Assembly: GCA_963840855.1 (NCBI GenBank)
Contig: CAWJBB010000080.1
Location: 1 to 64,000, forward strand
From: an uncultured delta proteobacterium
Lineage (GTDB): Bacteria > Desulfobacterota > Binatia > UBA9968
Length of the DNA: 64,000 nt
Reading direction: 5' to 3'
Shown here piece after piece: positions 98-48,322 of this stretch (its first letter is position 1; each line of letters opens with the position of its first letter). Position numbers and translations under genes: made by a program. A model generated the notes under the pieces. The model did not search any database and was not told the DNA's origin. It worked only from the letters and a program-made list of their open reading frames with translations.

Positions 98-118
98 AAC
101 GGTTTGAACGACTTGAAC
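98..118. repeat. TTGAAC micro-array, 9-bp period
   Basis: AACGGTTTGAACGACTTGAAC; TTGAAC at 104 and 113. Confidence 0.6.
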
Positions 119-193
119 TAAAAGCCTTGGGCAGGTAAAAAACTGTAGTCCGCAAATCTATTGATCTACCGAGAAATTAGGGAAGGATTTTTC

Positions 194-1198
194 ATGGCCA
201 ACTTACCCAGAGTCGCATTGATCATCACCGGCGGCACCATCGATTCCGTGGGCAAGGACCGGCTTGACCTCGCATGGTACATCGAAGCTGGCAAGCGCCT
301 GAAAGACGGCGAGATCCTCGAGATGCTGCCCGAGTTGAAGCAAATCGCCGAGGTTACGGAAATCCCGTTTCGACGCTTGCCAAGCCACGCGCTGATCGAC
401 AAAGACTGGCTCGACCTGGTGCGCACCATTCACAAGATCTTCGACGAAGACAAAGCCGACGGCATCGTCATCACCCACGGCACCAATACCATCGAAGAGA
501 CCGCCTATTTTTTGAATCTCGTCCTCAAAACCGAGAAACCAGTGGTGGTGGTCGGCTCCATGCGCCCCTCCTCCGCCATCAGCGCCGACGGCTATTTGAA
601 TCTGGTGAACGCGATCAAAGTTGCCGCCGATGCGAATTCGAAAGGACGTGGTTGCCTGCTGGTGATGAACGATACGATTTACAACGGCCGCGATGTAACC
701 AAGAACGCAACCTATCGAGTCGAGGCTTTCCAGTCCCGTGACCTTGGCCCGTTAGGTTTCGCCGATGGCGACGGCAAGATCGTTTTTTACCACCAGCCCG
801 TGCGCAAGCACACGGCGCAAACCGAGTTCGACGTGCGCAATTTAGACTCCCTTCCGCGGGTGGACGTCGTGGTTTCTTACGTCGGGGCTGATGGGACAAT
901 GATTGAGGCCGCGGCGAAGGCGGGCGCGAAGGGCATCGTCAGCGCCGGCACCGGCGCCGGTCGGCCGACACCGGCGGAAGACGCCGCCTTCGACAAATGC
1001 TTCAAAGAAACCGGCATGCTCATGTGCCTTTCGAGCCGCGTCGCATCCGGCCGCGTGGTGCGCAGCCCGGGTCTGACCAAGCGCGGCTTCGTCGCCAGCG
1101 ATAATTTGCAGCCCTGGAAAGCGCGCCTGCTGCTGTCATTGGCGCTGACGAAAACGAACAACGCCGACGAGATTCAGCGCATGTTCGACACTTACTGA
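194..1198 (+). CDS. Asparaginase/glutaminase family protein (cytoplasmic)
   Basis: TGGTI, HGTNT, VGSMRP and VTK motifs; ATG 194 after GGAAGGA RBS. Confidence 0.9.
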   Translation: MANLPRVALIITGGTIDSVGKDRLDLAWYIEAGKRLKDGEILEMLPELKQIAEVTEIPFRRLPSHALIDKDWLDLVRTIHKIFDEDKADGIVITHGTNTIEETAYFLNLVLKTEKPVVVVGSMRPSSAISADGYLNLVNAIKVAADANSKGRGCLLVMNDTIYNGRDVTKNATYRVEAFQSRDLGPLGFADGDGKIVFYHQPVRKHTAQTEFDVRNLDSLPRVDVVVSYVGADGTMIEAAAKAGAKGIVSAGTGAGRPTPAEDAAFDKCFKETGMLMCLSSRVASGRVVRSPGLTKRGFVASDNLQPWKARLLLSLALTKTNNADEIQRMFDTY

Positions 1199-1220
1199 TT
1201 CTCGAGACCAAGTCTCGAAG

Positions 1221-1253
1221 GGTCAAAAAGTTCAAACCGTTCAAGTCGTTCAA
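1221..1253. repeat. GTTCAA micro-array, 9-bp period
   Basis: Cores at 1221 (GGTCAA), 1230, 1239, 1248. Confidence 0.8.
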
Positions 1254-1530
1254 AACGATCTCCGGGAAGAATTTTCACTTGGCGCTAGCAAGTCAGGATG
1301 CACTAATTCTTTCAACACTGATGCGAGTATCCCGCACGCGGGGTTTCCGATAGTCGAGCACGGACGGACTGAACCGGTTTTCAGCCTGTCCGATTCACGT
1401 TGCTACCACATACTGTAAGATTTACTGTAAAGGATTTGTTGACCGCGCTGCTTGCTTCATTATAAATTCGCCGAGGCGTTTTTAATCACAAAGCTCAAAG
1501 CGGGTTCACCTCGTCTTTTTTGCTCATTCC

Positions 1531-5164: not shown

Positions 5165-5227
5165 TTCAAACGTTTAGAACGATTTGAACGGAGCGCAGCG
5201 ATTGAACGACTTAAACGATTTGAACGG
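5165..5227. repeat. TTGAAC micro-array, 9-bp period with one 18-bp unit
   Basis: Cores at 5175, 5184, 5202, 5211, 5220. Confidence 0.85.
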
Positions 5228-5253: not shown

Positions 5254-6594
5254 TCAACTACCCCTGTCGCTACTCCGCCGCTGTCCAATACGCTTGGCCA
5301 ACTCGGCCGGCGAGGCCATGGCCATGGACAGCGGCACCATGAAGGCGCTGATCACGATGAGTCCCCAGACGGCGACTGAGTAGTTCCCGTTCACGTCGAA
5401 GATGATGCCCATGACGAAGGGGCCGATGACCCCCGCCGCAACGGGCCCCCCTTGCAGCAGGCCCAAGATTCCCCCGATGGTGCGGGTGCCGAACATAATG
5501 CTGCCCACGGCGCCACGCATGGGAACAAGGCAGCCAAAGCTGACGCCGAACATCAGCGCGAAGGGCAATGTTGCCGAGACGGTATTGACGTCCACCACCT
5601 GGAGATACAATAGAGCAAAGCCCATCAGCGCGGCGACAGCTGCCAGGACGAGGCGATAATCCATATTGTCCAGCAGATAGCCGCCGCCGACCCGCCCAAT
5701 GCCGCTGATGATGAAGACCATGGACATGACTACGGCCGCCCAAGCCGCGGTAAGTCCGATGTCTTGCTGGAAGTAGGGAATCATGTGGACTTGGACCGCG
5801 GAGTTTACGGCGAAGGTACCCGACAAGTAGCTCGTGAACAGCCAGAATTCCCTGGTGCGTAGCACCGCATGGAGCGTGAGCCCGGTGTCCGGCCGGCGCG
5901 GCGATAAGCCGGTGGGGCGTTCCGTGGCGGCGCCCTCCTCCGGCGGGTCGCCGTCAGGGCGCAGGCCGTAGGGTTCCGGCCGGTCGCGCACCAGCATGCT
6001 GAGCAAGGTGACGCCGACCAAGATTAAGATGCCGTAGCCGATAAGGAGGACGCGCCAGCCGTGCGCCTCTACGATCTGTGTGTTAAGTATGACGAGGGGC
6101 GAACCGAAGATGGGACCCGTTACCGCAAGCCCCGTGGCCAGGCCGCGGTTGCGACGAAACCACCGCGAGATGATCACGGGCCAGGTAACCGCGTGGCTGA
6201 CGCCGGATGCTCCCAGGGAAATGACCACGAAGAAGAGAAAGAACGCTACGATGCCGTTGGTGAAGCCGAGGCCGATGAAGCCGGCGCCGGAGATGACGGC
6301 GCTCCAGAAAATCAACTTACGCGCGCTGAAGCGGTCCAGCAGGAATCCGACAGCGGGACTGACAATGCCGGACTCTAACTGGCGCAGCGACATGGCCGCT
6401 GAAATGACCCAACGGTCCCAGCCAAAGGTGCGTTCTATCGGGAGGATGAGAACGCCGAAGCCCTGGAAATAGGCGGCGGAGAAGATGGTGTTGGCCGCTA
6501 TGCTCGCGGCGACCATATACCAGCCGAAAAAAATCCGTCGCCGCTTTTTCCCTGATTTCTCAGTGGCGTGGGTATCGGTCAAGCCGGGCTCCAT
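5254..6594 (-). CDS. MFS transporter (OFA/MCT-like)
   Basis: 12 TM pattern, FFGWYMVAA, GFLLDRFSAR, RWFRRNRGLA. Confidence 0.9.
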   Translation of the reverse strand: MEPGLTDTHATEKSGKKRRRIFFGWYMVAASIAANTIFSAAYFQGFGVLILPIERTFGWDRWVISAAMSLRQLESGIVSPAVGFLLDRFSARKLIFWSAVISGAGFIGLGFTNGIVAFFLFFVVISLGASGVSHAVTWPVIISRWFRRNRGLATGLAVTGPIFGSPLVILNTQIVEAHGWRVLLIGYGILILVGVTLLSMLVRDRPEPYGLRPDGDPPEEGAATERPTGLSPRRPDTGLTLHAVLRTREFWLFTSYLSGTFAVNSAVQVHMIPYFQQDIGLTAAWAAVVMSMVFIISGIGRVGGGYLLDNMDYRLVLAAVAALMGFALLYLQVVDVNTVSATLPFALMFGVSFGCLVPMRGAVGSIMFGTRTIGGILGLLQGGPVAAGVIGPFVMGIIFDVNGNYSVAVWGLIVISAFMVPLSMAMASPAELAKRIGQRRSSDRGS

Positions 6595-11888: not shown

Positions 11889-12332
11889 TTTTACCCTCCG
11901 CGCCCTCAATTTAGTATCAACCCATTGTTCGACCGCGGTGCGTAAGCAGGGCAAGCCAGACTTGTCAAAAAGTTGCCCGCATCCACGAACGTTTTAGCTA
12001 GGGACTTATTCCGGTTCTCAAAGTCGTGTCAAGAGGTGTTAAAACCCCGCTTCGGAACGTTCGTGCGTACAGAGCCGACGATCGATCCGCGCATCGCGTG
12101 GGCCAAGCTCAAGTCGCTGGCAAGGGCGTGGCCATCGTCTCAAGCAACTTTGGAATTAGCAGGCATCACCGCTCTCTTGGACAAATCGCGCGGTATCCTG
12201 CGCGCCCTCCCAGCATGTCGAGCACCCCTGTCCGGCTCTAGCACTTCACTGCTCTATTGAAAGCTCAGAGCGTATGTAATAACGGTGCTGTATATGCCAG
12301 AAGGGCCCATAAGAAAAGGCTGGAGGTGAACT

Positions 12333-13451
12333 ATGAATATTAAAATTCTTAGCCCGGCAGCAATCTTTTTTTTCATGGGCGCATCGATTTTTGCCACGAC
12401 TGCAGCTGCTCAGGGCAGTGCGATGCTGTTGAAAGCAAAAACGGAGGCGGAGACGAAAGGCTATATCTTTGAGACCAGTCGCGACGCGATCGTGGCGAAG
12501 GCGAAGAAGGAAGGAAAGCTCGTAGTTTTCAGCTCCCAGGATGCGGAAACCATCCGGGCCGCGACTGACGCTTTCCGGAAAAAATACCCGTTCATCGATG
12601 TAAAGGCGACTGAGATCGCCGGTACGGATACTTACACCCGGATGATCCAGGAGTTGAGCCTCGGAAAGACCACGGCGTGGGATGTAAATTATGTGGCCTT
12701 TGACTATTACAGTCAGTATCTTCCGCACCAGAAAAAGTTCGACATGCTCGGCATGGCCAAGCATGGAGTGCTGCGGATACCGCCGGAAATGGTCGACCCG
12801 GTCAACCGCCACATCCTCGCTCTGCAGACCAATATGCAAGTGCTCGCTTACAACAAAAGATTGGTGCCAGAAAATACCACCCCGGCAACCTACGAGGACA
12901 TGCTGAAACCCGAATTCAAGGGGAAAAAATTTGCGACGGATGTTCGGCCGAGAGCTGTTGCCGCGCTCGTGCCGGCCTGGGGGTTGGAGAAAGTGTTGGT
13001 TTATGCCAAAAAGCTAGCGGCCCAAGACCCCATCTGGACTCGGGGGGACACCCGGACCCTACCTCTTATGACAGGCGGAGAAATTCCCATGAATCTTGGC
13101 TTGAATTACAAAGGTTACCTGAGATTCAAGGAAAAAGACGTTCAAGATGTCCTGGGCGCAAAAATTGTTGAGCCCATTCCGGTGCGCCTGACGGAAGCGG
13201 AGGGCGTCTCGGCCACGGCGCAGAACCCCTACGCGGGCCTGTTATGGCTGGAGTTCCAAGCAAGCCCGGAAGGTCAAGCTATCCTGGATAAAGTGGACCG
13301 AGCGGCCTCGCATTTAACTGCGGGCACGTTTCATGAAAAGGCGACGCGGGGCAAGAAAGTTTCCTTGTTGAGCTGGGAACATTATCCCCAAATGGGAAGG
13401 TACGAGGAGGAGGTCGTGAAGGCTTTCGGCTTTCCCAGGGCGGACAAGTGA
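12333..13451 (+). CDS. ABC extracellular solute-binding protein
   Basis: Signal peptide, AKKEGKL, AYNKRLV, DMLKPEFKGK, NPYAGLLWLEF; paralog-like to 6891. Confidence 0.85.
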   Translation: MNIKILSPAAIFFFMGASIFATTAAAQGSAMLLKAKTEAETKGYIFETSRDAIVAKAKKEGKLVVFSSQDAETIRAATDAFRKKYPFIDVKATEIAGTDTYTRMIQELSLGKTTAWDVNYVAFDYYSQYLPHQKKFDMLGMAKHGVLRIPPEMVDPVNRHILALQTNMQVLAYNKRLVPENTTPATYEDMLKPEFKGKKFATDVRPRAVAALVPAWGLEKVLVYAKKLAAQDPIWTRGDTRTLPLMTGGEIPMNLGLNYKGYLRFKEKDVQDVLGAKIVEPIPVRLTEAEGVSATAQNPYAGLLWLEFQASPEGQAILDKVDRAASHLTAGTFHEKATRGKKVSLLSWEHYPQMGRYEEEVVKAFGFPRADK

Positions 13452-13515
13452 AAGTAATATTTGAGAGGTGGATTGCCCACTTTGACATATGCATCAACCT
13501 AGTATCGCGCGTGGC

Positions 13516-13577
13516 CCGTTCCAGTAGTTCCAAACGTTCAATCGCTTCGCTACGTTCAAAACGTTCAACGGATTGAA
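13516..13577. repeat. GTTCAA micro-array, 9-bp period with one 18-bp unit
   Basis: Cores at 13518, 13527, 13536, 13554, 13563; reverse-complement homolog of 5175-5227. Confidence 0.85.
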
Positions 13578-13618
13578 AACCCCGGGAAAACTTGCACGTT
13601 TTGAGAATTCTCAAAACG

Positions 13619-14696
13619 TCAGTGGCAAGATGTAATGGCTTTCGCCACTTCCCTTGGATTTACGATAAACATATCGTGAACCGCATCGGGGGCGTCAATC
13701 AAAACGACATTCGCAGACGGCGCATTGCCCGTTAAAAAAGTGCCTAGATCCAGGTGTTCCTGCAGAAGATTTTCGCCGGGAACCGCGAGGTCTTCGCTAA
13801 AAGTGACGATACGAAAACATTTTTGCACCCGCTTGTTAAATATTCCTCGATTGACCGACGGACGCACAAATCCGTTGGATCCCAATAATTGCAGGGTCAT
13901 GATGAGAGCTTCATTGGATACGTAATTTGATTCGAGCGCGGTTGTAAATGGCGTGCCCGCGACAAATTCCCCCAGACTGTTGGTAAAGAAAAATGTCAAC
14001 CAAATTCCCAAAAGTTCGGCCTGTTCTGCCCGGTCGTTTGACAGCAATTGAAGATAAGACCCCGAGGCTTGGATCAGAGCTTACAAGAATTGCGGCAATC
14101 TGCGAGGCTGCCCCTGATTGAACAAATAACCATGGAAGTGGATTTGGGATAGAAGGAGCAAGCAAATACACGTTTTTAATTCCATATTCTTTTTGGAGGG
14201 AAGTGCCACTAGACCTAAGGCTGTTTTGAGCCGTTTGTATAATGAGTCCACCCATACTATGCCCGACAATACTTTCGATGTTTATTTGTTTCGGGAGTTG
14301 ATCCAATACACCAAGAAGAACTGCCGTATAGTCTTCGACGGTTAGATTTCCAAACTGCAAATTCGATGGCAGTCCGCTACCATTTCGACCGGGAAAGTTA
14401 AGCGCAAGAACACGATCTATTTTGTCGCGACCAGTCTTTTCGAAGATTTCATTCGCTAGCGGCTCAAACGTCGCTCCGGTATGGGCGAGTCCATGAACAG
14501 CCAAAAGCGTTTTGTTTCCACCGTTTTTATTAGGATTTTCGAAGTTATCGATCTGGATATCGACGATTCCGCCGCCAGGAAGAGAGACGCTGACGAGGCT
14601 CGGAACGTCCTTTGATCTTGCGTACGCGTGCGTCGCGTATGCCAGCATGACGAGAGCTGCCAGAGTGAATGTAATTATTCTAAACGGATGTTTCAT
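13619..14696 (-). pseudogene. Secreted alpha/beta hydrolase split by a frameshift near 14045
   Basis: ORF 13911-14696 has a signal peptide, HGL and GHSMGG; ORF 13619-14047 supplies the C-terminus with the catalytic His (DAVHDMF). Confidence 0.7.
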
Positions 14697-14925
14697 GCGG
14701 AGCTCCTTGTTTATAGAGTAGTTTAAAACTCATAATTGCTGCGTGATTAGTCTGAGAAGCAATAGCAACTGTTCTTATTCGATCCTTGTCCCTAGTTGTT
14801 CTGCCTCCGAGTAAACCCCACTGACAGACACGTCTGGCGCGGATATCGGTAAGGTTTAAGCAGGCTCGAAACGGATTGCAGTTCAATATTGGACGATCTT
14901 AAAAGAATCTGGGGGCGGCTTAATA

Positions 14926-15022
14926 AAAGGATAAAGGCGAAAGAATAAGGGTCGTGCTCGTGTTTCGTTATCGTTGGGGGGCTTCGGAAAGGATAAAGGC
15001 AAAGAGATAAAGGATAAACGGG
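14926..15022. repeat. AAAGGAT-type heptamer arrays flanking a TCGTG-type hexamer run
   Basis: AAAGGAT AAAGGCG AAAGAAT ... AAAGGAT AAAGGCA AAGAGAT AAAGGAT. Confidence 0.65.
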
Positions 15023-15069
15023 GAGAACCCAATCACGTTTTCGGAATTCTTGATTTGGCTTTTGTGTGA

Positions 15070-15113
15070 GTTCAACGGCTTGAACGATTTGAACGTTTTG
15101 AACCACTTGAACG
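15070..15113. repeat. GTTCAA plus (TTGAAC)4 micro-array, 9-bp period
   Basis: TTGAAC at 15080, 15089, 15098, 15107. Confidence 0.85.
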
Positions 15114-15134
15114 CAGAATCTTTAGTCTTCTACG

Positions 15135-16307
15135 CTACACCGCCCGTAGCGCCTGGGTGATATTCAGTCGCGCCGCGCGCACGGCGGGCAAGAAACCGCC
15201 GATGAGACCCATGAGCAACGAAAAGCCCAGGGCGTTGGCAATGATCGACGGCGACAGCGCGAAAGAAAACGCCAGCTCTGAGAACGAGCCGAGATTGAGC
15301 GTCGAAATGGTGAAGAACTGAAGCACGGAGGCGAGCCCGAGTCCGGCCAATCCGCCGGCGAAGGACAACAGCAAGGCTTCCAGGAGAAACGCCAGCAGAA
15401 TGCTGCGACGCTGGAATCCCAGCGCCCTGAGGGTGCCAATCTCGGTGGTTCGGTTGGCCACCGCGCCGTACATGGTGATCATGGCGCCGATGGTGGCGCC
15501 GGCGCTGAATATCACCGTGACAAACAAGCCGAGAATGCGGATGAAAGTCGCCATCATTTCCGACTGCTCTTCGAAAAACTTTTTCTCGCGCTTGGGAATA
15601 AAATACTGCAAGCGGTTATCGGCGTTGAAGCTGGACACCAGCGCGGCGAGATCGTCCGGGTTATTGAGCCGAAACGTAATCGTTGACACCGACGAGCGCT
15701 TGAAGGCATCGGCCACTTGGTTGAGATCGCCCCAGATTTCTGAATCGAAACCGCTGCCGTCGGCGTCGAAAATACCCACGACGGTCCACTGGTCGCCGCC
15801 GAATTTTATGCGCCGGCCGATCTGCGCGCCATCGAAACGTTTGGTGATGCCCGCGCCGGCGATAACTTCCCGCGCGCCCCATTTGAACATGCGTCCCTGG
15901 ACCACGCGCACCTGAGGTCTAAGGTCCAGGCCGGCCGCTTCGACGCCGCGCACGATGACGTTACTGATGCCGTCGGCGCCGAGTTTGTTAAGATTGATTA
16001 TGACGACGACTTCCTTGGAACTCATGGGCCGGCCGTCATTGAAACGCGCCACCTGCGGCAGATTGCTTACGATGCCGGCGGCTTCGCGGTCGATGATGCT
16101 CATGATTTCGCTCATGGCGGCCTTGCGCGCGACCATGACGTTATCATCGGAACCCGTTGAGCGCAGCGTGCGCTGCACGCCGTTGGCCATCATCAGGACC
16201 GCAGTATAGACGAACACCACCAAAGCGATGCCCGCGAGCGTCATGAAAGCGGTCAAACGGCGCGACGAAGAACTGCGAAGAATATATTTAACTGGAACCC
16301 GCGCCAC
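15135..16307 (-). CDS. ABC transporter permease (FtsX/MacB family)
   Basis: RTTEIGTLRALGF, PAVRAARL; MacB periplasmic core. Confidence 0.92.
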   Translation of the reverse strand: MARVPVKYILRSSSSRRLTAFMTLAGIALVVFVYTAVLMMANGVQRTLRSTGSDDNVMVARKAAMSEIMSIIDREAAGIVSNLPQVARFNDGRPMSSKEVVVIINLNKLGADGISNVIVRGVEAAGLDLRPQVRVVQGRMFKWGAREVIAGAGITKRFDGAQIGRRIKFGGDQWTVVGIFDADGSGFDSEIWGDLNQVADAFKRSSVSTITFRLNNPDDLAALVSSFNADNRLQYFIPKREKKFFEEQSEMMATFIRILGLFVTVIFSAGATIGAMITMYGAVANRTTEIGTLRALGFQRRSILLAFLLEALLLSFAGGLAGLGLASVLQFFTISTLNLGSFSELAFSFALSPSIIANALGFSLLMGLIGGFLPAVRAARLNITQALRAV

Positions 16308-16346
16308 TTTGTGTCCCTTCGACTTTTAGCCTGTGCCTTCGTACGG

Positions 16347-16384
16347 TTGAATTGTTCGTCTCGAACGGTTTGAACGTCTTGAAC
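16347..16384. repeat. TTGAAC micro-array, 9-bp period
   Basis: Cores at 16361 (TCGAAC), 16370, 16379. Confidence 0.75.
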
Positions 16385-16389
16385 AGCGA

Positions 16390-17550
16390 CTATCCCACGT
16401 AGCGCAGCCCTTCGACGATGCGGGTCGTCACCACGCGCCGCATCGGAATCAACGACGCCACGACGCCGACGAGCAAACCGGCGGCGCAGGCCATGACCAC
16501 GGTCTCCGGCTTGATATAAAAGACCGGGAACCAGCCTTTCGGCAATGCCTTCTCAAAGCCCGCCACCGCCGGCAACGTGACCCCCAGCCCTAAAGCGCTG
16601 CCGAGCAGTGATAGAATCAACGACTCGCCGGCGATGAGGAAAAAAATCTGCGCGGCGGAAAAGCCCAGCGCCTTCAACACCGCGTACTCATGGGTGCGCT
16701 CGCGGGCGGACATGACCATCGTGTTGCCGAGCACCAGCAGGATGATGCCGATAATGACGAAAGACATGATGTTCATGGCCGTGATAATCGCGCTGGCGGC
16801 TGAAAGAAAACTTTGCTGAAAGGCCCGTTCGGTTTCGGTCTTGGTCTCGGCTCGCGAGTTGGCAAAAAGCTTGTCGATTTCCTCCGAGATGGCGGCGGAA
16901 TTTTCCGGATCGTCGATGCGCACGATATACCAGCCGATCTCTCCGGCGCGATCGGGCATCTCCTGACGGATCCGTTCTTCAATGTACTTGTAGTGAAACA
17001 TCATGGTCGCCGGGTCCGTGGTTTGATCTCTGGGAGTGTAGATGCCGCGCACGACGAATTCCCATTGCCCGGGAAAGATGTCACCCTCCACGGGCATGAT
17101 GTCGCCGATCTTGAGGTTGTAGCGCTGTGCGATGTCGATGCCGATGATCGCCGCGTTGCGCTCGCGCTTGAAGACTTCGAACTGTTCCTTGTCGATGAGA
17201 AACTCGGGGTACACGTCGAAGAACGTCTCCGAATCAACTCCGAGCCGGGCAAAAAATTGGTTCTTGTCGACATAGACGCCCGAGAACCAGATGGCGTAGG
17301 TCACTTTATTCACGCCCGGCACTCTGGCGATGCGGTCGCGGTAGGCCAGCGGCAGCGGAAAGACAAAAGATACCGCATGGCGGGTAATCAAACGGTTGGC
17401 GGCGGAGGCTTCGACGCCGGCGTACCAGGCCGTCACCACGGTGCGGAGCAGAGCAAAGGCCATCACCGCCACGCCGATTCCCAAGATGGTCAACACGCTG
17501 CGCAGCTTATGACGCAAAGAGTTACGCAGCATCAATCGGACAAGTTCCAT
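16390..17550 (-). CDS. ABC transporter permease (FtsX/MacB family)
   Basis: RNSLRHKLRS, RERTHEYAVLKALGF; start MELVRL chosen because the upstream extension lies in a repeat. Confidence 0.92.
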   Translation of the reverse strand: MELVRLMLRNSLRHKLRSVLTILGIGVAVMAFALLRTVVTAWYAGVEASAANRLITRHAVSFVFPLPLAYRDRIARVPGVNKVTYAIWFSGVYVDKNQFFARLGVDSETFFDVYPEFLIDKEQFEVFKRERNAAIIGIDIAQRYNLKIGDIMPVEGDIFPGQWEFVVRGIYTPRDQTTDPATMMFHYKYIEERIRQEMPDRAGEIGWYIVRIDDPENSAAISEEIDKLFANSRAETKTETERAFQQSFLSAASAIITAMNIMSFVIIGIILLVLGNTMVMSARERTHEYAVLKALGFSAAQIFFLIAGESLILSLLGSALGLGVTLPAVAGFEKALPKGWFPVFYIKPETVVMACAAGLLVGVVASLIPMRRVVTTRIVEGLRYVG

Positions 17551-17562
17551 AGATTCATGCTC

Positions 17563-17657
17563 GTTCAATGGTTCAAGGTTCAAGGTTCAAAGGTGTCAAA
17601 CTGTACGGAGTAATTCGAGTTACTCACACCTTGAACCTTGAACATTGAACTTTGAAC
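17563..17657. repeat. Inverted heptamer arrays forming a 95-bp hairpin
   Basis: (GTTCAAN)4 GGTGT...GAGTAAT-TCGA-GTTACTC ACACC (TTGAACN)4. Confidence 0.9.
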
Positions 17658-17665
17658 TAATCTAT

Positions 17666-18340: not shown

Positions 18341-18369
18341 GATTCCACCAACGAGTTGTTTACATCCTG

Positions 18370-18402
18370 CCGACCGTTTTGAACGGCTTGAACGATTTGA
18401 AC
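18370..18402. repeat. TTGAAC micro-array, 9-bp period
   Basis: TTGAAC at 18379, 18388, 18397. Confidence 0.8.
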
Positions 18403-20534: not shown

Positions 20535-20573
20535 GTTTGAACGATTTGAACGGCTTGAACTGTTTGAACGTTT
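20535..20573. repeat. TTGAAC micro-array, 9-bp period
   Basis: TTGAAC at 20537, 20546, 20555, 20564; abuts the TAA of the minus-strand methyltransferase. Confidence 0.85.
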
Positions 20574-22923: not shown

Positions 22924-22981
22924 GTTCAATCAAATAGTTTAAATCGTTCAAAGCGCCTCCGGATTGTTCGACGACTTGAAC
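22924..22981. repeat. Degenerate GTTCAA...TTGAAC element
   Basis: GTTCAA 22924, GTTTAA 22937, GTTCAA 22946, TTGAAC 22976. Confidence 0.65.
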
Positions 22982-29591: not shown

Positions 29592-29622
29592 ATTAACCGG
29601 ACAGAGCGCGGCAACGGCGGAA

Positions 29623-32094
29623 TCAAAATCTGATTACGCCTTTCCTCTCACTTTTGTACCCTCGATAACGAATGCTAGCGCCGTCGGATTCGACGATGAT
29701 CGCGCCGTCACGGTCCGTGCGCAATACAATAGCGCCACCGGCGCTATAGCGCTCGCTCACTTCGTCGCGCTGGCCTTCCAAGCGGCCGCGCGCGCCGGCG
29801 GAGATTATCGCCAGTCTGGGCCGTAGCGCTGCGACAAATTCCGAGCTGCTCGCGCTTGCGCTGCCGTGGCGCGGGACCTTCAGCACGCCGCCCGGCGGCA
29901 ATACCTTACTCTGCAATAAGATCGCTTCTTGGCGTTTATCGATATCGCCGGCAAATAGATAGCGCAGCTTGCCATGTTCCAAGAGAAGCACTACGGAACC
30001 ATCGTCGCCATTGCCGGCTGGCGCAGACACAACGCAGAATGATATTGTGTCAATGGCGCGGCACGGCTCGCCCGCTGTGAGCGATCGCCGTGGAATTTTC
30101 GCCTGTGCCAGCGCCTCCTCCAAATCCTCAAAACGCCCGGCTTTCCCGCGCCCGTCTCCGGACCAGAACTCGGTGGGCGAAAACTCCGCGGCGATGGCGC
30201 GCATGCCGCCATAGTGGTCGATGCGCGGATGTGTAACTGCCAGATAATCAACCTTGAGAATTTTCCGGGCGCGCAAGAATGGCGCGACAATGGACTCGCC
30301 GGGGTCGAAGTCGCCGAACGCCGTACCACCGGCATCAAGCAACAAAACCTTCGAACCGGGCAACTCCACCACCGCGGCATCACCCTGGCCAACGTTGAGA
30401 TGCGTGACGCGCAAATTGGCGCGCCGCCAGCGCTCTTGCCACCAATAGTAGCCATCCGCGCAAAGCCCGGTTACGACCAGGACCATAGCGGCGAATACGT
30501 AGCGATTGCGCTTGAGCGTGAAGAGCAGAAGGATTAGCGAGTACAGCCCGATGACTTCCCAGGCATTGGGCGCGGGCACACCGATATTGGCGAAGGGCAG
30601 TCTGGCGAGCCAATCCACCAACCAAAGGGTCAACGTGAGTAATTTATCCGTGAGCCAAACGAGAGACGGCGCCGCTTGCGGCGCGACCACCGCCAAAAAA
30701 CCAACCAGCAAGCCGATGGGCACGACGATAAACCCTATCAGTGGGACGATCAGCGGATTTGCCACGAAGCCAGCGAGGGAAAGATGACCGAAGTAGTGCG
30801 CTATCAAGGGGCCAGTGCCGAGGGTGGCGAGCAGCGGCACCATAAAATGCGGCGCGGCCTGGCGCAACTTCTCCCGCAGCCATCTTCTCTCCTGCGGCAA
30901 TTCATCGCGTCTTTTCGGCGCCCGCCGCGCTTGCATTTTGCGCACGCCCCAGACGATGAACAAGACAGCCAAAAACGAAAGTTGAAACGAGATGTCCGCG
31001 ACGACTCCTGGCCAAACCAGCGCGATCAGAAGCGCCGCCAGCGCGAGACTCGTGAATACTTCCTCTTCCCGGTCGAGCAGCACCGCCAGTTGGTAGACGC
31101 CGATCATGATCGCCGACCGCACAGTTGGCACCATTGCGCCGGCCAGCGCCGTGTAGAAGATGACAGCGAGGAAAGAAAAGAAAGCGGCCACTTTTAGTAG
31201 GTTCCACCGCAGCAAACAATACGTGCTCCAGGCGCAGCCAAAGCGGATCAGCGCGAAGACCACCAAGCCCAACATCGCGACGTGCAACCCCGAGATCGAC
31301 AGCACATGGTTCACACCGGCGGCTGTGAAGGCACCGCGCGTCTCTTTGCTGATTTCACCCATGTCGCCGATGACCAGGGCCTTGAGCAGAGCGCCGTGAG
31401 AGGCAGAGAAGTTTTCCTGGATATGGCGGCGAATCGCCCTGCGTAAATCCTCAATGGAACCGCGCAACGCGCCCGATTCGCGCTGCACTAGCTCGACTTC
31501 TTGATCGTTGTCAAGAAACCCGGAAGCGTAAATCTCGCGCCGCGCCAAATAGTTCGCGTAATTGAAGCCGCCGGGATTGCCGCTATCACGGGGCACCACC
31601 GGCCGCACCTTAAAGCGCACCCGGTCGCCGTAGCGCCACTCGCGCCGCGCGGTTCGTATGTTGACGATCAAGTTGCCGCTGATCTCCTCGGCACCGGTGG
31701 GATGCCAGATACTTTGCGTCCGGATAATCCAGCGGCTTCGGTTCGGTAGCTTTTCGGGCTCTTGCAGTAAAGAGCCTTCAACGTAAAGCAGCTCAGCCCG
31801 GTTCATCGCCGCGCGCAAATGATTCGGCGGGAATACCGGCTCCAGTAGCGCCCGGTGCCTGACAAGACCTACGCTAAAGGCAAGCGCGCCAAGAAACAGC
31901 ACCATGCCCCAGCGCCGTGTCTTGGCCGTCAAGCAAAGAAACAACGGCACGATGGCAAGAAATGCCGCGCCGAAGGAAACAGCAGGAGCAAACGGTGCCG
32001 TTGCCTGGCCGATTAGAAGCAGGGCTGTCGGCACGACGAGCCACACTGACGGATGATGAATCAATGAATTAGCAGGCTGCTGAACAAGCCCCAT
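29623..32094 (-). CDS. comEC: DNA internalization competence protein ComEC/Rec2
   Basis: NPGGFNY, HVLSISGLH, SFQLSF, NVGQGDA, C-terminal MBL domain, RTDRDGAI. Confidence 0.95.
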   Translation of the reverse strand: MGLVQQPANSLIHHPSVWLVVPTALLLIGQATAPFAPAVSFGAAFLAIVPLFLCLTAKTRRWGMVLFLGALAFSVGLVRHRALLEPVFPPNHLRAAMNRAELLYVEGSLLQEPEKLPNRSRWIIRTQSIWHPTGAEEISGNLIVNIRTARREWRYGDRVRFKVRPVVPRDSGNPGGFNYANYLARREIYASGFLDNDQEVELVQRESGALRGSIEDLRRAIRRHIQENFSASHGALLKALVIGDMGEISKETRGAFTAAGVNHVLSISGLHVAMLGLVVFALIRFGCAWSTYCLLRWNLLKVAAFFSFLAVIFYTALAGAMVPTVRSAIMIGVYQLAVLLDREEEVFTSLALAALLIALVWPGVVADISFQLSFLAVLFIVWGVRKMQARRAPKRRDELPQERRWLREKLRQAAPHFMVPLLATLGTGPLIAHYFGHLSLAGFVANPLIVPLIGFIVVPIGLLVGFLAVVAPQAAPSLVWLTDKLLTLTLWLVDWLARLPFANIGVPAPNAWEVIGLYSLILLLFTLKRNRYVFAAMVLVVTGLCADGYYWWQERWRRANLRVTHLNVGQGDAAVVELPGSKVLLLDAGGTAFGDFDPGESIVAPFLRARKILKVDYLAVTHPRIDHYGGMRAIAAEFSPTEFWSGDGRGKAGRFEDLEEALAQAKIPRRSLTAGEPCRAIDTISFCVVSAPAGNGDDGSVVLLLEHGKLRYLFAGDIDKRQEAILLQSKVLPPGGVLKVPRHGSASASSSEFVAALRPRLAIISAGARGRLEGQRDEVSERYSAGGAIVLRTDRDGAIIVESDGASIRYRGYKSERKGVIRF

Positions 32095-34069: not shown

Positions 34070-34107
34070 CAGAACATTCTAGCAGCTTGGATGATCTATA
34101 AGCTTAG

Positions 34108-34193
34108 GGTTCAACGTTCAAAGTTCAAGGTTCAAGGTATGAAGAATCACGTTCAATCCCCCACGTTGAACTTTGAACCTTGAACATTGAACC
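34108..34193. repeat. Inverted heptamer arrays forming a hairpin between uvrB and uvrC
   Basis: (GTTCAAN)4...GTTCAA...(TTGAACN)4; shares TTGAACCTTGAACATTGAAC with 17631-17650. Confidence 0.9.
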
Positions 34194-34198
34194 GCCTC

Positions 34199-36232
34199 CT
34201 AGCTTTCCGGCGCTGGCATAGCGTCGCGCAGCGTCAGTTCCCGTTGTTCGAGATCACGGATGCGGTCGCGCAGCTCCGCCGCTTTTTCGAATTCAAGCTG
34301 CTCGGCGGCCTGTTTCATCTCCTTCTTGAGCTGGCGGATCACCCGCGGCAACTCCGCCGATCCATACCTGGAGCCCTTTTCCGCCGCCACCGGCACGTCG
34401 TGATAATCCGCCTCGTAAATTTTCACCAGCGGCGAGCCCAGAGATTTTACCACCGTCTGCGGCGTAATACCGTGGTTTTTGTTGAATGCCGCTTGCAGCT
34501 TCCGCCGCCGGCCGGTTTCGTCGATGGCTCGATTCATGGAGTCCGTCCTGCCGTCGGCATATAGAATGACCATGCCGCGCACGTTGCGCGCCGCGCGACC
34601 GATGGTTTGAATCAGTGATCGGTCCGAACGCAAAAATCCCTCTTTGTCCGCGTCGAGGATCGCCACTAGGGACACCTCCGGCAAATCAAGTCCTTCACGC
34701 AGCAGATTGATGCCCACCAGCACGTCAAATTCTCCCGTGCGCAATTGGCGGATGATCTCGACCCGCTCCAACGTTTCGATGTCGGAGTGGAGATAGCGGA
34801 CTTTGACGTTCAAGTCCTGATAGTAGTCGGTCAGGTCTTCGGCCATGCGCTTGGTCAGCGTGGTCACGAGCACGCGCTCCTTGAGCTCGACTCGCTGGCG
34901 AATCTCTTCCAGTAAGTCGTCCACCTGATTGCGCGCGGGGCGCACTACCACTTCGGGGTCCATGAGGCCAGTGGGCCGTATCACCTGTTCGACAACGTCG
35001 CCGCGGCTCTGCTGCATTTCATATTGAGCGGGGGTGGCGGAGACGTAGATTACCTGGCTTACGCTCGCTTCGAATTCGGCAAAATTCAGGGGCCGGTTAT
35101 CGAGAGCGGAGGGCAAGCGGAAACCATATTCGACCAGCGTTTCTTTGCGCGAGCGGTCGCCCCGGTACATGCCGCCGATTTGCGGCACGGTCACATGGCT
35201 TTCATCGATGACCAACAGAAAGTCGCTGGGAAAGTAGCTCAAGAGCGTCGGCGGGGGCTCACCGGGCTTGCGGCCGGTCAGATGCCTGGAATAATTTTCG
35301 ATGCCCGGGCAAAAACCCATTTCTTCGAGCAACTCAAGGTCATACAAGGTGCGCTGCTCCAGGCGTTGGGCTTCCAGCAACTTGGCTTCCGCGCGCAGCT
35401 CGCGCAGCCGTTCGCCAAGCTCTTTGCGAATCTCAACAACCGCTTGCTTCATGCGTTCCTCGCCGGTGACGTAGTGGCTCGCCGGATAGATACACGCCTT
35501 GTCCACGCGCCGCTGGATTTTGCCGCGGATCGGATCGATTTCCCGGATCGTCTCGACGGTATCGTCGAAAAATTCGATGCGCAAAGCCGAGCTGTCTTCG
35601 TAGGCGGGAAAGATTTCCACGATGTCACCGCGGACCCTGAAAGTGCCGCGGTGAAAGTCGTAGTCGCTGCGCTGGTATTGAATATCCACCAGCTTGCGCA
35701 GCATCTGGTCGCGATTGATCACCGTCCCCTCTTCCAGATAAACCATCATATCGAAATAGGCTTCGGGAGAGCCGAGACCATAGATGCACGACACGCTGGC
35801 GACAATCAGGGTATCGCTTCGTTCGAGAAGCGCTTTGGTGGCCGAATGGCGCAGTTTATCGATCTCGTCGTTGATCGACGCGTCTTTCTCGATATAAGTG
35901 TCCGTCGAGGGAACGTAGGCTTCCGGCTGGTAGTAATCATAGTAACTGACGAAGTAGCGAACCGCGTTTTCGGGGAACAGCTCGCTGAATTCATTATAAA
36001 GCTGGGCCGCCAGCGTCTTGTTCGGCGCGATAACCAGGGTCGGCTTGTTTGTCCGGGCGATAACGTTGGCCATCGTAAAGGTCTTGCCGGACCCGGTAAC
36101 GCCCAGCAAGACTTGCTGGCGGCGGTCGCTTTCGATGCCCCGAACCAGCTTTTCGATGGCCTGCGGCTGATCGCCCTGGGGTTTGAAGCCTGTAGTAAGT
36201 CGAAACTGTCCCTGGTCTCGGTGGTGGATCAT
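34199..36232 (-). CDS. uvrB: Excinuclease ABC subunit B
   Basis: [35 protein letters not shown]-terminal UVR. Confidence 0.98.
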
Positions 36233-42891: not shown

Positions 42892-43284
42892 ATGGCCCGG
42901 ATCAAACATATCGCCATTCGCACTCACGACGTGGAAAAGACTGCGGCTTTTTATCGAGAGGCCTTCGGCCTCACGCAAGTCGGCACGGGCCAGAGCGGCG
43001 TCTACCTTTCCGACGGTTATTTGAACATCGCCATCTTGAAGCTACGGCCCGCCATCGAGGGCGAGCCTCTGAAGCTCGGCGTCGATCATATCGGCTTTCA
43101 AGTGAACGATGTCGGGGCCACCGTGGCACACATTCAACGGCTGGGCGGGAAATCGTTGACCGATCGAATGGACACGACCGCGACAAACTCGACGGAGCCG
43201 CAATCCTATTTTGAAGTTAAGTGCCTGGGCCCGGACGAGCAAGTGATCGATGTTTCCTCGGCCGGTTGGGTTGGCTCGGGATGA
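42892..43284 (+). CDS. VOC/glyoxalase family protein
   Basis: IKHIAI...FYREAFGL, DHIGFQV, GPD. Confidence 0.9.
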   Translation: MARIKHIAIRTHDVEKTAAFYREAFGLTQVGTGQSGVYLSDGYLNIAILKLRPAIEGEPLKLGVDHIGFQVNDVGATVAHIQRLGGKSLTDRMDTTATNSTEPQSYFEVKCLGPDEQVIDVSSAGWVGSG

Positions 43285-43295: not shown

Positions 43296-43346
43296 GGTTC
43301 AAGGTTTCAGGTTTGCTCGGAAACTTTAGAAGCGCGTGTTTGAACC
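43296..43346. repeat. Degenerate heptamer GTTCAA...TTGAAC element
   Basis: GGTTCAAGGTTTCAGGTTT...TTTGAACC. Confidence 0.55.
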
Positions 43347-45885: not shown

Positions 45886-47157
45886 CTATCTGATCCGTTC
45901 GACTCCGCCCATATATGGCCGCAGAGCATCGGGAATCAGAACGCTGCCGTCTTTCTGTTGATAGTTTTCGAGAACCGCCACCAGTGTTCTCCCCACAGCT
46001 AGGCCAGAGCCATTGAGCGTGTGAACGAATATCGGTCTCCCCTTCTTATCCTTGCGGTACCGAATGTGCGCCCGGCGCGCTTGGAAATCTTCGCAGTTGG
46101 AGCAAGAACTGATTTCACGGTAGGCTTTTTGCCCGGGGACCCACACTTCCAAGTCATAGGTTTTCGCGGCGGCAGGGCCCATATCGCCGGTGCAGAGCTC
46201 GACCACGCGATAAGGCAATTTCAGCCGCTTGAGGACTTCTTCCGCGTTCTGCACCATGCTCTCCAGCTCCTGGTAGGAAGTCTCCGGTTCCGTGAATTTC
46301 ACCATTTCAACTTTGTTAAACTGATGCTGGCGGATCAGGCCCCGAACGTCTTTGCCGTAAGAACCCGCTTCGCTGCGAAAGCATGGCGTGTGGGCGACAT
46401 ACTTTATCGGCAGCTCCTCCCGCTCGATCATCTCATCCCGGTGCAAGTTGGTAAGCGGAACCTCCGCGGTGGGAATGAGAAAGTAGTCTCCCTGAGCGAG
46501 GCGAAACAGATCTTCTTCGAACTTAGGAAGCTGGCCGGTGCCGATCAGCGAAGCGCGGTTGACGAGCGCCGGCGGCAAGATTTCCTTGTAGCCGTTTTCC
46601 TTGGTGTGCAAATCCAGCATGAAATTGATCAACGCCCGCTCGAGTCTCGCGCCGGCATCCCGGTAAACCACGAATCGGGCGCCGGTGATTTTGGCCGCTC
46701 GGACAAAGTCCAGAATGCCCAATTCTTCACCGATGTCCCAGTGGTTCTTGGGTTCAAAATCGAACTCGGGCAGTTCGCCCCAACGGCGGATCTCTTTGTT
46801 GTCTTCAGCGCTTTTCCCGATAGCGACGCTTTCGTTGGGCAAGTTTGGCAAACTTAGCATGAAAGCTTCAAAACGGGCCTCGATCTCCGCCAGCGGCTTC
46901 TCGCTGTTCCGAATCGCGTCACTGACCTCTTCCGCCTCGCCCATCAGTGCTACGGCATCGGCGCCGGATTTTTTAAGCTTGCCAATTTCTCCGGACAATC
47001 GATTCTTTTTTTCCTTGAGTTTCTCGATGTTCGCCAGGGCTTCGCGCCGCTCGTGGTCCACGGCGAGGAACTCGTCCCAATCGATCTCAGCGCCGCGAGG
47101 CGCCATCCGCGCTTTAACCTCATCCAGGTTTTCCCTCAACAACTTTACGTCTAACAC
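45886..47157 (-). CDS. serS: Serine--tRNA ligase
   Basis: [37 protein letters not shown]. Confidence 0.98.
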
Positions 47158-47166
47158 GGTATTCCT

Positions 47167-47538
47167 CTAAGAGATCTCGAAGGCGTTTTGCACATGCTCC
47201 ACCACGGGTTCAGGCCCCGGCCAGGAAATACCGACGACGTCAAAGCGGGCGTCGCGCTCGTGCAGTTTTTTCTGGTGTAAGAAAAGCTGAGCAGCGAGAA
47301 TCATGCGCCGCTGCTTTCGCGGTTCCACGGCCTCCAACGGGGTGCCGAATCCATGATCGGTGCGCGTCTTCACTTCGACAAAAACGACAACCCGGCGGTC
47401 AAGCACGATCAAATCGACTTCGCCGCCGCGGCAGCGATAGTTGCGCTCGACGAGCGCATAGCCCTTTTTCTTTAAATAGCGCTCCGCGACCCTTTCGCCC
47501 TCCCTGCCGAGCGCCTGTTTTGAATTTTCTCCGTTCAT
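47167..47538 (-). CDS. yraN: YraN family putative endonuclease
   Basis: G..GE..A..YL, GEVDLI, FVEVKTR, RFDVV. Confidence 0.95.
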   Translation of the reverse strand: MNGENSKQALGREGERVAERYLKKKGYALVERNYRCRGGEVDLIVLDRRVVVFVEVKTRTDHGFGTPLEAVEPRKQRRMILAAQLFLHQKKLHERDARFDVVGISWPGPEPVVEHVQNAFEIS

Positions 47539-48230
47539 CGCTTTATCAAGGTTCCATCGGCTTCACACAACTCGCGCACCGGCGCAAAGCTGCGGCGGTG
47601 TACCGGCGACGGGCCATGACGGCGCAACGCCTCCAGATGCGCAGCGCTGCCATATCCCTTGTGGCCGGCGAAACCATACTGCGGATAGGTCGCATCCAAT
47701 TCGATCATGATTTGGTCCCGGGCCACCTTCGCAATAATGGAGGCCGCGGCGATGGAGAGGCAGATCCGGTCGCCCTTGATGATAGCCGTTTGTATTGTCT
47801 CCCGTCGGACGACTGCGAACCGGGAATTAAGAATTTCCACCGGAATCGTCTGGCTGCCGTCTATCAGCAAATGGTCAGGCGCCGGCGCTAGAGCTCGGCA
47901 AGCCTTAGCCATGGCCATTAGACTCGCTTTGAGAATGTTATAGCGGTCGATCTCTTGAACATCGACGATCCCCAAACCCCAGCTGATGGCGTTTGCTTTA
48001 ATGACTAGTGCGAGCCGCGAGCGTTGTTCGGCCGTAAGGAGCTTGGAATCCCTGATCTCGCAGTCCGTAAATCCCCGCGGTAAGACCACCGCTGCCGCCA
48101 CCACGGGACCCGCCAATGGCCCTCTTCCAGCTTCGTCGATGCCGGCGATCCATTTAAAACCGAGGCCGAAATTTTCTGCCTCTATGGGCACGAAATCCTG
48201 ATCGCCATCAGGCCGTGTCGCTATAACCAT
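47535..48230 (-). CDS. rnhB: Ribonuclease HII
   Basis: GIDEAGRGPLAGPV, DSK, IDG, SIAAASIIAKV.RD. Confidence 0.97.
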   Translation of the reverse strand: MVIATRPDGDQDFVPIEAENFGLGFKWIAGIDEAGRGPLAGPVVAAAVVLPRGFTDCEIRDSKLLTAEQRSRLALVIKANAISWGLGIVDVQEIDRYNILKASLMAMAKACRALAPAPDHLLIDGSQTIPVEILNSRFAVVRRETIQTAIIKGDRICLSIAAASIIAKVARDQIMIELDATYPQYGFAGHKGYGSAAHLEALRRHGPSPVHRRSFAPVRELCEADGTLIKR

Positions 48231-48296
48231 CGTGCTTCAGTTGTAACCAAAAGGATACCGCACTGCAAATAAGACCCCGTCCCAGGGGAGATTTCA

Positions 48297-48322
48297 GTTC
48301 AAAGTTCCAGGTTCAAGTTTCC
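48297..48322. repeat. GTTCAA heptamer micro-array between divergent rnhB and gatC
   Basis: GTTCAAA GTTCCAG GTTCAAG. Confidence 0.6.

Follow-up and report, generated by a model that had tools for sequence, protein, structure and literature searches.

Strand-polarized GTTCAA arrays as candidate gene-end elements in an uncultured delta proteobacterium

Known signals at the ends of bacterial genes are mainly hairpin terminators, Rho sites and the hairpins of repetitive extragenic palindromes (REPs). The short tandemly repeated repetitive (STRR) sequences of cyanobacteria are intergenic tandem units of about 7 nt, repeated as identical head-to-tail copies at many loci per genome. Miniature inverted-repeat transposable elements (MITEs), such as Correia elements, are 60-150 bp long, have terminal inverted arms and leave filled and empty sites between relatives. 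REPs are reported to lie 1-20 nt from the ends of open reading frames (ORFs), with translation effects when they are <16 nt away (PMC12306157), and to sort into GTAG and CGTC super-families (PMC3733652). We analyzed a 64,000-nucleotide stretch of an uncultured delta proteobacterium (positions 1-64000 of contig C80 in genome G000, hereafter the window), in which the hexamer GTTCAA and its complement TTGAAC form short phased arrays, mostly between genes. With a probability that we put at roughly 45%, these arrays are REP-like, strand-specific gene-end elements that serve as multivalent sites for a factor acting on the transcript. This reading is favored because the polarity of the arrays is linked to stop codons, their hexamers are kept while spacers and loops drift, and the same polarity is seen in two other phyla and one phage.

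The genome is a metagenome-assembled genome (MAG) of 7.1 Mb in 93 contigs with 56% G+C. Overall, the window holds 87 GTTCAA/TTGAAC hexamers where 32.8 were expected (standard deviation 5.2; maximum 45 in 100 shuffles), and the genome holds 6586. Genome-wide start-to-start distances between same-strand hexamers peak at 7 (890) and 9 (520) against 87 at 8 and, at the doubled distances 14 and 18, 101 and 84, in agreement with the two spacings described for the window in an earlier note on this DNA. Defining a run as at least two perfect in-phase units (GTTCAA or TTGAAC) at 7- or 9-bp-register spacings, we counted 834 runs, of which 467 have the 7-bp and 319 the 9-bp register and 48 combine the two. 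For the 101 control hexamers made by reordering these letters, the median was 3 runs, and the highest-scoring controls are frame-shifted readings of the GTTCAA repeat itself; a de novo scan of all hexamers placed GTTCAA far ahead at periods 7 and 9. The enrichment over background that the earlier note put up for checking is confirmed in window and genome alike. Runs at most 150 bp apart were merged, yielding 548 elements: 137 clean 7-bp pairs, 64 clean 9-bp pairs, 273 single arms and others of mixed build. By our own gene calls, 757 of the 834 runs are intergenic, and the claim that all arrays are intergenic is nearly correct. The array at 20537-20569 lies within ORF 20470-21063, whose tail is probably non-coding.

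Elements are distributed over 324 co-directional, 111 convergent and 69 divergent gaps, with 40 inside our gene calls. Relative to intergenic length, convergent gaps display a mild excess and divergent gaps a deficit, the latter holding 69 of 504 elements though they make up 22% of intergenic length. Elements in co-directional gaps lie at median distances of 20.5 nt from the upstream stop and 62.5 nt from the following start, and 220 of these 324 elements are nearer the stop than the start. Among 7-type or mixed pairs, 100 of 153 start <16 nt from the stop (median 11 nt). Single arms at most 40 nt from a stop read GTTCAA in sense 103 times and in antisense 15 times (p 2.5e-17), which extends to the genome the earlier observation that arrays after stops read GUUCAA on the message. 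This bias is absent at 41-150 nt from the stop (25:30) and near starts, up to 60 nt away (29:40). Of the 103 sense arms, 63 are followed by fewer than two TTGAAC-like units in the 130 nt downstream, indicating true single arms and not, in all cases, half-decayed pairs. Many single arms are arranged in the order stop, array, ribosome-binding site, ATG. Altogether, 306 elements begin 0-40 nt past a stop with the sense arm first, or about one in twenty of the 6459 genes called. TAA and TAG are mildly over-represented at stops before sense arrays. Stop-to-array distances of the 306 elements have no frame preference (104/102/100), on which ground a recoding or read-through signal was rejected.

Polarity also bears on whether the arrays are duplex DNA sites for a nucleoid-associated or ribbon-helix-helix-type protein that binds cooperatively to short tandem repeats. 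The omega repressor, for example, binds 7-bp heptads, and MetJ binds 8-bp boxes. Runs of 2-4 short units spaced at 7-9 bp, arranged directly or convergently but not divergently, are consistent with such a protein, as are conserved hexamers with free spacers. A symmetric duplex reading, however, does not predict strong polarity toward the strand and stop of the upstream gene; 7- and 9-bp registers place successive sites on very different helix faces; and divergent (promoter) gaps are unenriched. We consider duplex sites quite improbable.

In the gene-end reading that we favor, the functional unit would consist of at most four GTTYMR units (consensus GTTCAA) phased at 7 or 9 nt, beginning 2-20 nt past the stop and read as GUUCAA on that gene's transcript. 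Each run would form a multivalent, strand-specific binding site for a putative sequence-specific factor whose target would be the RNA, whether nascent or mature, or else the non-template strand of the DNA, where the upstream cistron has its 3' end. Candidate roles are 3'-end formation, processing, stability or termination-linked control. A two-armed element would represent two modules back to back, and transcription from either side would first encounter a sense arm. The stable hairpins of pairs may be a by-product or a second function, and at a median of 11 nt from the stop they should, by analogy, act like stop-proximal REP hairpins. Abundance, registers, polarity, position, conservation pattern and taxonomic spread are direct observations, from which we infer the binding of a factor, RNA as its target and an effect. 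A Rho site built on the UC dimer of each unit is a weakened candidate, since GTT, and not C, is the conserved part. C-rich loops, tried separately as Rho sites, have no orientation bias (10 versus 10 strongly skewed loops). Pairing of CGUUCAA with the 5' domain of 16S rRNA and a consensus-pause role were also weighed as candidates and set aside as a poor fit.

Two-armed elements follow one convergent order, a GTTCAA arm and then a TTGAAC arm, in 243 cases within 150 bp as against 1 in reverse order; the left-right arrangement first described for the window thus holds genome-wide. Runs with 2, 3, 4 and 5 units number 124, 159, 161 and 11 among 7-bp arms and 117, 125, 74 and 1 among 9-bp arms, an abrupt cut-off at about 4 units. 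Units of the 9-bp type read GTTCAA-R-N-C, with GCC, ATC, AAC and GTC as commonest spacers, and the 7-bp spacer can be any base, mostly G and A. Spacers have no position-specific consensus, and the outer flank of arms is likewise unconserved. At its outer (5') edge an arm begins abruptly; at its inner (3') edge it fades via a partial unit nGT(T). Imperfect in-phase units retain GTT at 90-96% while positions 4-6 vary C/T, A/C and A/G. Cross-arm spacer complementarity is 14% in the 7-bp type versus 26% by chance (z about -3.7), and 39% versus 45% in the 9-bp type. Single arms are predicted to be unstructured as RNA. Together, the GTT kept in degenerate units, the free spacers, the low cross-arm complementarity and the unfolded single arms indicate that sequence is conserved here, not structure.

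Loops range from 8 to 117 nt and, by blastn-short, 168 of 243 have no relative in the genome. The remainder fall into small families, namely a C-rich CGTCCCCACCTCCCAACC type, GCGCCGAAGGCGC, AGTTAGGGACAACGG and CCGGATTGTTCGACGG. Loops as structured RNAs were ruled out, as the mean folding z of loops alone (-0.32) is close to that of control intergenic DNA (-0.15). G+C-rich tetraloop hairpin modules (GGCGCC-TTCG-GCGC; GCCCC-TTCG-GGGC) occur between units or in loops, for example at C20:16777-16893 of the window genome and at viral loci L145, L151 and L184.

Identical neighboring spacers number 25 among 410 cases, where 112.8 were expected, and 1 among 216, where 21.7 were expected. These figures bear on the idea that replication slippage produced the arrays as neutral, microsatellite-like sequence, an origin proposed for the STRR heptamers of cyanobacteria. 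Slippage would suit the single length difference seen in G001, a 95%-identical relative with exactly one 7-bp unit fewer at 34109-34192, in the arm farther from the stop. It would also suit perfect tandem expansions in other organisms, such as about 20 copies of GTTCAAAAG in L007 (a Chitinophagaceae MAG). Perfect expansions, which also include runs of CGTTCAA, occur in viral contigs (L173, L215 and G332) as well, and the unit can thus also behave as a plain microsatellite. The rarity of identical neighbors nevertheless argues against slippage, as do the ceiling at 4 units, the strand polarity and the recurrence of the hexamer in several phyla, and we deem it a very improbable origin of the arrays.

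For paired 7-bp elements, folding energies of -37 to -48 kcal/mol are predicted on each of the two strands (z -5.6 to -8.8). These folds, along with the short distance of pairs from stops, would fit purely structural hairpins, whether stop-proximal and REP-like or non-canonical terminators, in which the hexamer is an inherited building block only. Such hairpins would stall terminating ribosomes, block 3' exonucleases or stop RNA polymerase. Consistent with a non-canonical role, hairpin-plus-T terminators are unenriched over shuffles in 20 kb of the window (25 versus 27.5 expected in 12000-31999); sigma-70-like promoters in the same interval are also unenriched (10 versus 9.3 expected). Yet half of all elements are structureless single arms, and it is these that carry the strand polarity, while the spacers of facing arms are less complementary than chance. 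T-tracts lie past the distal arm in 14 of 257 transcribed directions compared with 285 of 4276 control positions, and the stem unit has a G+C content of 2/6, unlike the G+C-rich hairpin of an intrinsic terminator. Hairpins, moreover, have no need for one hexamer common to phyla. We regard a purely structural role as rather improbable.

The window contains the following arrays.

104..118, minus strand: two TTGAAC units in the 9-bp register, 75 nt upstream of plus-strand gene 194-1198.
1230..1253, plus strand: three GTTCAA units in the 9-bp register, in sense, 31 nt past the stop of plus-strand gene 194-1198.
5184..5225, minus strand: three perfect TTGAAC units, in sense, 28 nt past the stop of minus-strand gene 5254-6594.
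13536..13568, plus strand: three GTTCAA units in the 9-bp register, 84 nt past the stop of plus-strand gene 12423-13451.
15070..15112, minus strand: one GTTCAA and then four TTGAAC units in the 9-bp register, 22 nt past the stop of minus-strand gene 15135-16244.
16370..16384, minus strand: two TTGAAC units, in sense, 5 nt past the stop of minus-strand gene 16390-17550.
17563..17657, no strand assigned: 7-bp pair of four GTTCAA units, a 40-nt loop and four TTGAAC units, filling the gap between minus-strand genes 17666-18340 and 16390-17550.
18379..18402, minus strand: three TTGAAC units in the 9-bp register, in sense, 70 nt past the stop of minus-strand gene 18473-19669.
20537..20569, minus strand: four TTGAAC units in the 9-bp register, in the tail of ORF 20470-21063.
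22924..22981, no strand assigned: degenerate 9-bp pair with the recurrent CCGGATTGTTCGACG module in its loop, 8 nt past the stop of plus-strand gene 22331-22915.
34109..34192, no strand assigned: 7-bp pair with 4(+1) and 4 units, the near arm 6 nt past the stop of minus-strand gene 34199-36232.
43297..43345, no strand assigned: weak array of one GTTCAA, one TTGAAC and degenerate GGTTTCA units, 12 nt past the stop of plus-strand gene 42892-43284.
48297..48316, plus strand: two GTTCAA units spaced at 14 bp and flanking a degenerate GTTCCA, in a divergent gap.

All thirteen had been listed in the earlier note, and eleven contain at least two perfect in-phase units; the arrays at 22924-22981 (single perfect units plus degenerate ones) and 43297-43345 are weak. 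The first array, described earlier as reading TTGAAC ahead of the next start, does so with two units at 104-118 that are antisense to both neighboring genes, and by inspection it is probably the distal arm of a decayed pair. The array at 1230-1253 is predicted to be unstructured as RNA. Units at 5184-5225 are spaced at 18 bp with degenerate units between them, including the GGAGCGCAGCGA module, and the array at 13536-13568 holds one TCGCTTCGCTAC module and is preceded by GTTCCA variants. In the element at 15070, the four-unit arm (15080-15112) is in sense. Predicted folds reach -42.8 and -46 kcal/mol (z -6.3 and -8.3) for 17563-17657 and -48 and -37 kcal/mol for 34109-34192. ORF 20470-21063, on the minus strand, runs through the 20537-20569 array in frame, which yields Val-Gln-X repeats. 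This array is conserved in G002 as three perfect units plus TTAAAC, in a tail that is 1 nt longer, and because of this length difference the coding status of the ORF tail is doubtful. Judged from the sequence, the tail is probably non-coding and the true stop may lie near 20574, as the earlier note had it.

Orthologous gaps were compared with G000 as reference in four congeners and one sister genus. The earlier note had suggested comparing orthologous gaps for filled and empty states, and both were found among congeners. The 116-bp gap holding 17563-17657 is 0 bp in G005, where stop and start overlap, and 30 bp with no array in G003. Its counterpart in G002 has 2 perfect GTTCAA and 2 perfect TTGAAC units plus a degenerate third, around an unrelated loop. 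Gap 18341-18473 is 133 bp in the window, 18 bp in G002 and 7 bp in G003. The site orthologous to 16370-16384 has an array in G003 (4 units) and G004 (1 unit) and none in G002 and G005, and the array at 48297-48316 is kept in G001 with none there in G003 and G004. For the flanks of both gaps in 13452-15134, no anchor was found in any of the five relatives, and this stretch, with ORFs 13619-14047 and 13911-14696, may be unique to the window genome.

Presence and absence were accompanied by retention of hexamers where spacers and loops diverge. Array-bearing gaps of the window genome have an array in the relative in 16 of 31 comparisons and array-free gaps in 2 of 65, a Fisher odds ratio of 33.6 that treats related genomes as separate although kin are not independent. 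At 34070-34198, the stop-proximal arm is found in five species with 4, 4, 3, 2 and 3 perfect hexamers (G000, G001, G002, G003 and G004, respectively), whereas spacers differ among species and the loop and other arm are unconserved. Conservation of the stop-proximal arm and not of its pairing partner also counts against purely structural hairpins. With arrays defined from G000 alone, identity between G000 and G002 is 76% in hexamers, 55% in spacers, 56% in other intergenic DNA and 80% in coding flanks, and between G000 and G004 the corresponding values are 73, 65, 53 and 78%.

Within the phylum, the arrays are largely confined to one family. The 9-bp three-unit pattern is present in 18 of 18 genomes (15 genera) of the window genome's own family, while in the second family of the order it gave a single chance-like match in 2 of 5 genomes, and in the third it is absent from all 7. 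The 7-bp pattern is found in 13 of the 18 family genomes but is absent from all 12 genomes of the two other families. Two of the family genomes, G009 and G015, are unpublished; without them, the counts are 16 of 16 and 11 of 16. In a 300-genome sample of the phylum, matches came from one family member and from 3 of 299 other-family genomes with 1-3 matches each.

Filled and empty gaps in congeners (116 versus 0 bp; 133 versus 18 or 7 bp) are what would be expected of selfish, non-autonomous MITE- or REP-like DNA spread by an enzyme encoded elsewhere, with position and orientation beside stops reflecting insertion preference and the purging of harmful insertions rather than a host function. Arms that are sharp at the outer boundary and 28-36 bp long, like terminal inverted repeats, point in the same direction, as does the single fixed arrangement of pairs. 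So do a patchy spread, in one family within the phylum yet abundant in MAGs of other phyla and viral contigs, and accessory modules common to several phyla (the CCCAACC-TTGAAC junction, AGCGAAGCGA and small GC tetraloop hairpins). Conversely, flank repeats of at least 2 nt, as a target-site duplication would leave, occur in 24 of 232 elements compared with a mean of 24.3 for shuffled partners. Most loops are without a relative, orthologous loops cannot be aligned where hexamers are perfect, and hexamers are better conserved than spacers and other intergenic DNA. No gene-carrying copies were found, none of the 10 Y1-transposase loci in the genome is flanked by GTTCAA arrays, and single arms, strongly strand-polarized, account for half of the elements. 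Selfish spread as the whole explanation appears to us somewhat unlikely. The small mobile element of the earlier note accordingly lacks a duplication, shared loops and an autonomous partner, but orthologous presence/absence and the sharp outer boundary keep some form of spread in play. By analogy with REPs, selfish spread and a gene-end signal can both be partly true.

The empty cassette sites also proposed in the earlier note were not borne out, as there is no excess of gene-sized GTTCAA...TTGAAC pairs and the enclosed genes are ordinary. Genes inside the few long pairs are, by eye, RecR-, Fpg-, KsgA- and UbiD-like. In a single case, an ORF that resembles an IS110-type transposase by eye (C3:99793-101043) lies between the arms of a 9-bp GTTCAA pair; some IS110-family elements insert into REPs. 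A second, small array family, in which CACGAAG (left) and CTTCGTG (right) recur every 8-9 bp, has 53-86 periodic occurrences in the genome. It is found beside GTTCAA arrays at C3:99598-101450, in the G002 counterpart of gap 22916-23059 and in L007. Minor periodic words at 8 bp are CGCAAA/CTTTGC and ACTCCA.

The array design extends beyond this phylum. A scan for four 9-bp units with one genome per species gave at least 118 loci. Among the matches listed, many are labeled Candidatus Binatia, Deltaproteobacteria bacterium or uncultured delta proteobacterium and have the same R-N-C units and inverted arms, a weak pointer to the kind of organism behind the window. Others carry the labels Chitinophagaceae, Vicinamibacterales, Verrucomicrobiia, Lentimicrobium, Fluviicola or Chloroflexota, and a few of the listed matches are simply microsatellites or repeats within coding sequence. 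Five MAGs with labels of this second group contain the three-unit pattern 184, 32, 98, 85 and 39 times genome-wide, whereas the reversed control gave zero. The CCCAACC-TTGAAC junction, AGCGAAGCGA and the small GC tetraloop hairpins are modules that recur across phyla. All runs with the nearest ORF stop at most 40 nt away are in sense in a Chitinophagaceae MAG (11 of 11; 355 kb) and a Vicinamibacterales MAG (5 of 5; 208 kb). GTTCAA runs of the Chitinophagaceae MAG (G335, loci L451-L470) often follow GAGGTTTGT/GAGGTTTGA 9-mer runs and are then followed by AAGGTTGGRA, the complement of the CCCAACCTT junction of the window genome.

Viral contigs contain arrays of the same mosaic build: loci of four units number at least 156 for the 7-bp type and at least 120 for the 9-bp type, and one 30-kb contig carries about 20 elements. 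A 24-kb contig encodes a tailed-phage structural module assigned with PHROGs (terminase, portal, protease, major head, adaptor, tape measure and tail fiber), with all genes on one strand and 5 of 5 arrays in gene sense. Four of these five arrays begin 5-13 nt past a stop, at sites such as the gap between a scaffold-like and the major head gene and past a tail-tube-like gene. The major head protein of phage G331 is <50% identical to those of Mu-like phages of many hosts and so points to no particular host. A phage-encoded reader of the arrays was rejected: among five viral contigs with arrays, unrelated ones have only structural proteins in common, and the ORFs of these five have no tblastn match in the window genome. 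That unrelated phages with arrays share no small protein points to a host factor.

GTTCAA is also the core of the tRNA T-loop, and the 9-bp unit GTTCAA-R-N-C matches positions G53..C61. All 39 tRNAs found in the genome fit GTTCRANNC, 15 with GTTCAA and 24 with GTTCGA. The arrays, however, differ from T-loops in several respects. They have no T-stem; GTTCGA forms no arrays in the genome; degenerate units vary A/C at position 5 and C/T at position 4, breaking the C56/R57 rules; and spacers in the Chitinophagaceae and Vicinamibacterales MAGs are not N-N-C. A bolder variant would make GUUCAA runs a gene-end tag of several phyla and phages that is read by a conserved cellular factor past the stop, so as to mark a cistron's 3' end or process it. 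By analogy, its reader could be a T-loop-recognizing enzyme or other universal RNA-handling protein. The identity of GUUCAA with the invariant T-loop core would explain the recurrence of the hexamer in distant lineages, and we consider the shared tag an improbable, though coherent, extension.

Several points weigh against the gene-end signal. The multivalent RNA- or DNA-protein sites of the earlier note are favored by polarity, hexamer conservation and cross-phylum polarity, but no binding factor was identified. One hexamer in registers of both 7 and 9 would need a flexible binder. Independent modules would not account for the near absence of divergently arranged pairs, which suggests that pairs arise as units. 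Pairs are symmetric with respect to transcription, both in loop C/G skew (65 versus 72) and in the copy number of the arms (47 versus 47), and their share is 46% in convergent gaps versus 48% in co-directional gaps. With neither pair asymmetry nor a convergent excess, the notion of a bidirectional module is left without positive support. Orthologous sites are empty in 15 of 31 comparisons, as expected of dispensable or selfish DNA, and alignment sliding inside repeats may inflate hexamer identity. The MAG is 94% complete and 8% contaminated, and its 6459 genes, covering 81% of the genome, come from our own crude caller. In four public runs, depth spikes are seen on arrays from many unrelated contigs, including in an RNA library, and one public contig set is a metatranscriptome with 6% of sampled words. 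These runs are assembled contigs without RNA ends or strand, and therefore say nothing on expression.

If a factor does read the runs, they would constitute a new, widespread layer of mRNA-end control in largely uncultured soil bacteria that is copied by phages. The shared-tag variant, if true, would make them a new class of bacterial 3' untranslated region or intercistronic signal, and if the arrays are selfish, they would be a repeat family of unusual modular build and cross-phylum reach. The design spans MAGs labeled Bacteroidota, Acidobacteriota, Verrucomicrobiota and Chloroflexota as well as the structural operon of a tailed phage. In either case, the arrays offer a practical marker when gene ends and the structure of operons are annotated in these genomes.

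A literature search, with supplements outside its scope, found no description of such arrays. Rfam covariance models gave 0 matches at gathering score in the whole window and, with E allowed up to 5 in 13400-23100, no more than two matches, both at chance level and away from arrays. As the earlier note held, the arrays are not clustered regularly interspaced short palindromic repeats, having 6-nt units, 1-3 nt spacers, inverted arms and loops of 8 to 117 nt. DNA uptake sequences of Neisseria and Pasteurellaceae are 9-12-mers, often in inverted pairs downstream of genes, that serve the competence machinery of their lineage. The GTTCAA family resembles them as an over-represented short word, often in an inverted pair just past genes. 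Uptake words, however, are single, without a known 7/9 register and tied to one lineage, whereas GTTCAA occurs in phased runs. Integron attC sites have the consensus order RYYYAAC ... GTTRRRY with a cassette ORF between successive sites; GTTCAA elements have the opposite order (GTT... first, ...AAC last) and no gene-sized cassettes.

The earlier note considered STRR sequences the nearest analogue. Likeness extends to short intergenic tandem units at many loci per genome; but adjacent units are almost never identical, as head-to-tail STRR copies are, and STRR is therefore not the nearest analogue. Spacers vary, runs stop at about 4 units, arms are inverted and orientation is linked to stops. 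MITEs resemble GTTCAA pairs in length (60-150 bp), in inverted arms (about 28-36 bp, or up to 4 units of 7 or 9 bp, with a sharp outer boundary) and in filled and empty sites among relatives. They differ in that GTTCAA arms are internally repetitive, loops are unshared with 168 of 243 as singletons, no autonomous element was found in the genome, and hexamers are kept at orthologous sites.

REPs and their bacterial interspersed mosaic elements (BIMEs) remain the closest known kind. Like them, GTTCAA elements are present as hundreds of short intergenic copies per genome, include imperfect palindromes that fold as RNA, form mosaics with other small modules, lie from a few to about 20 nt past stops, and are lineage-restricted with presence/absence between relatives. 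The palindrome is limited to the two-armed elements (243 pairs); 273 of 548 elements are single arms. The statement in the earlier note that these are not classical GC-rich REPs stands insofar as GTAG and CGTC tags occur in 4 and 9 of 464 eight-nt outer flanks, and no Y1_Tnp locus, the domain of REP-associated tyrosine transposases (RAYTs), is flanked by arrays. A Y1 (RAYT-like) gene at C65:116401-116928 is flanked on both sides by a different palindrome (tcccggatt...catccgggctacatg), and this locus is probably a conventional REP/RAYT system in the same genome. The GTTCAA family is set apart from REPs by arms built of tandem hexamers with free spacers, by the lack of a RAYT link or end tag, by single, unstructured, sense-polarized arms that make up half of its elements, and by a hexamer common to several phyla and to phages.

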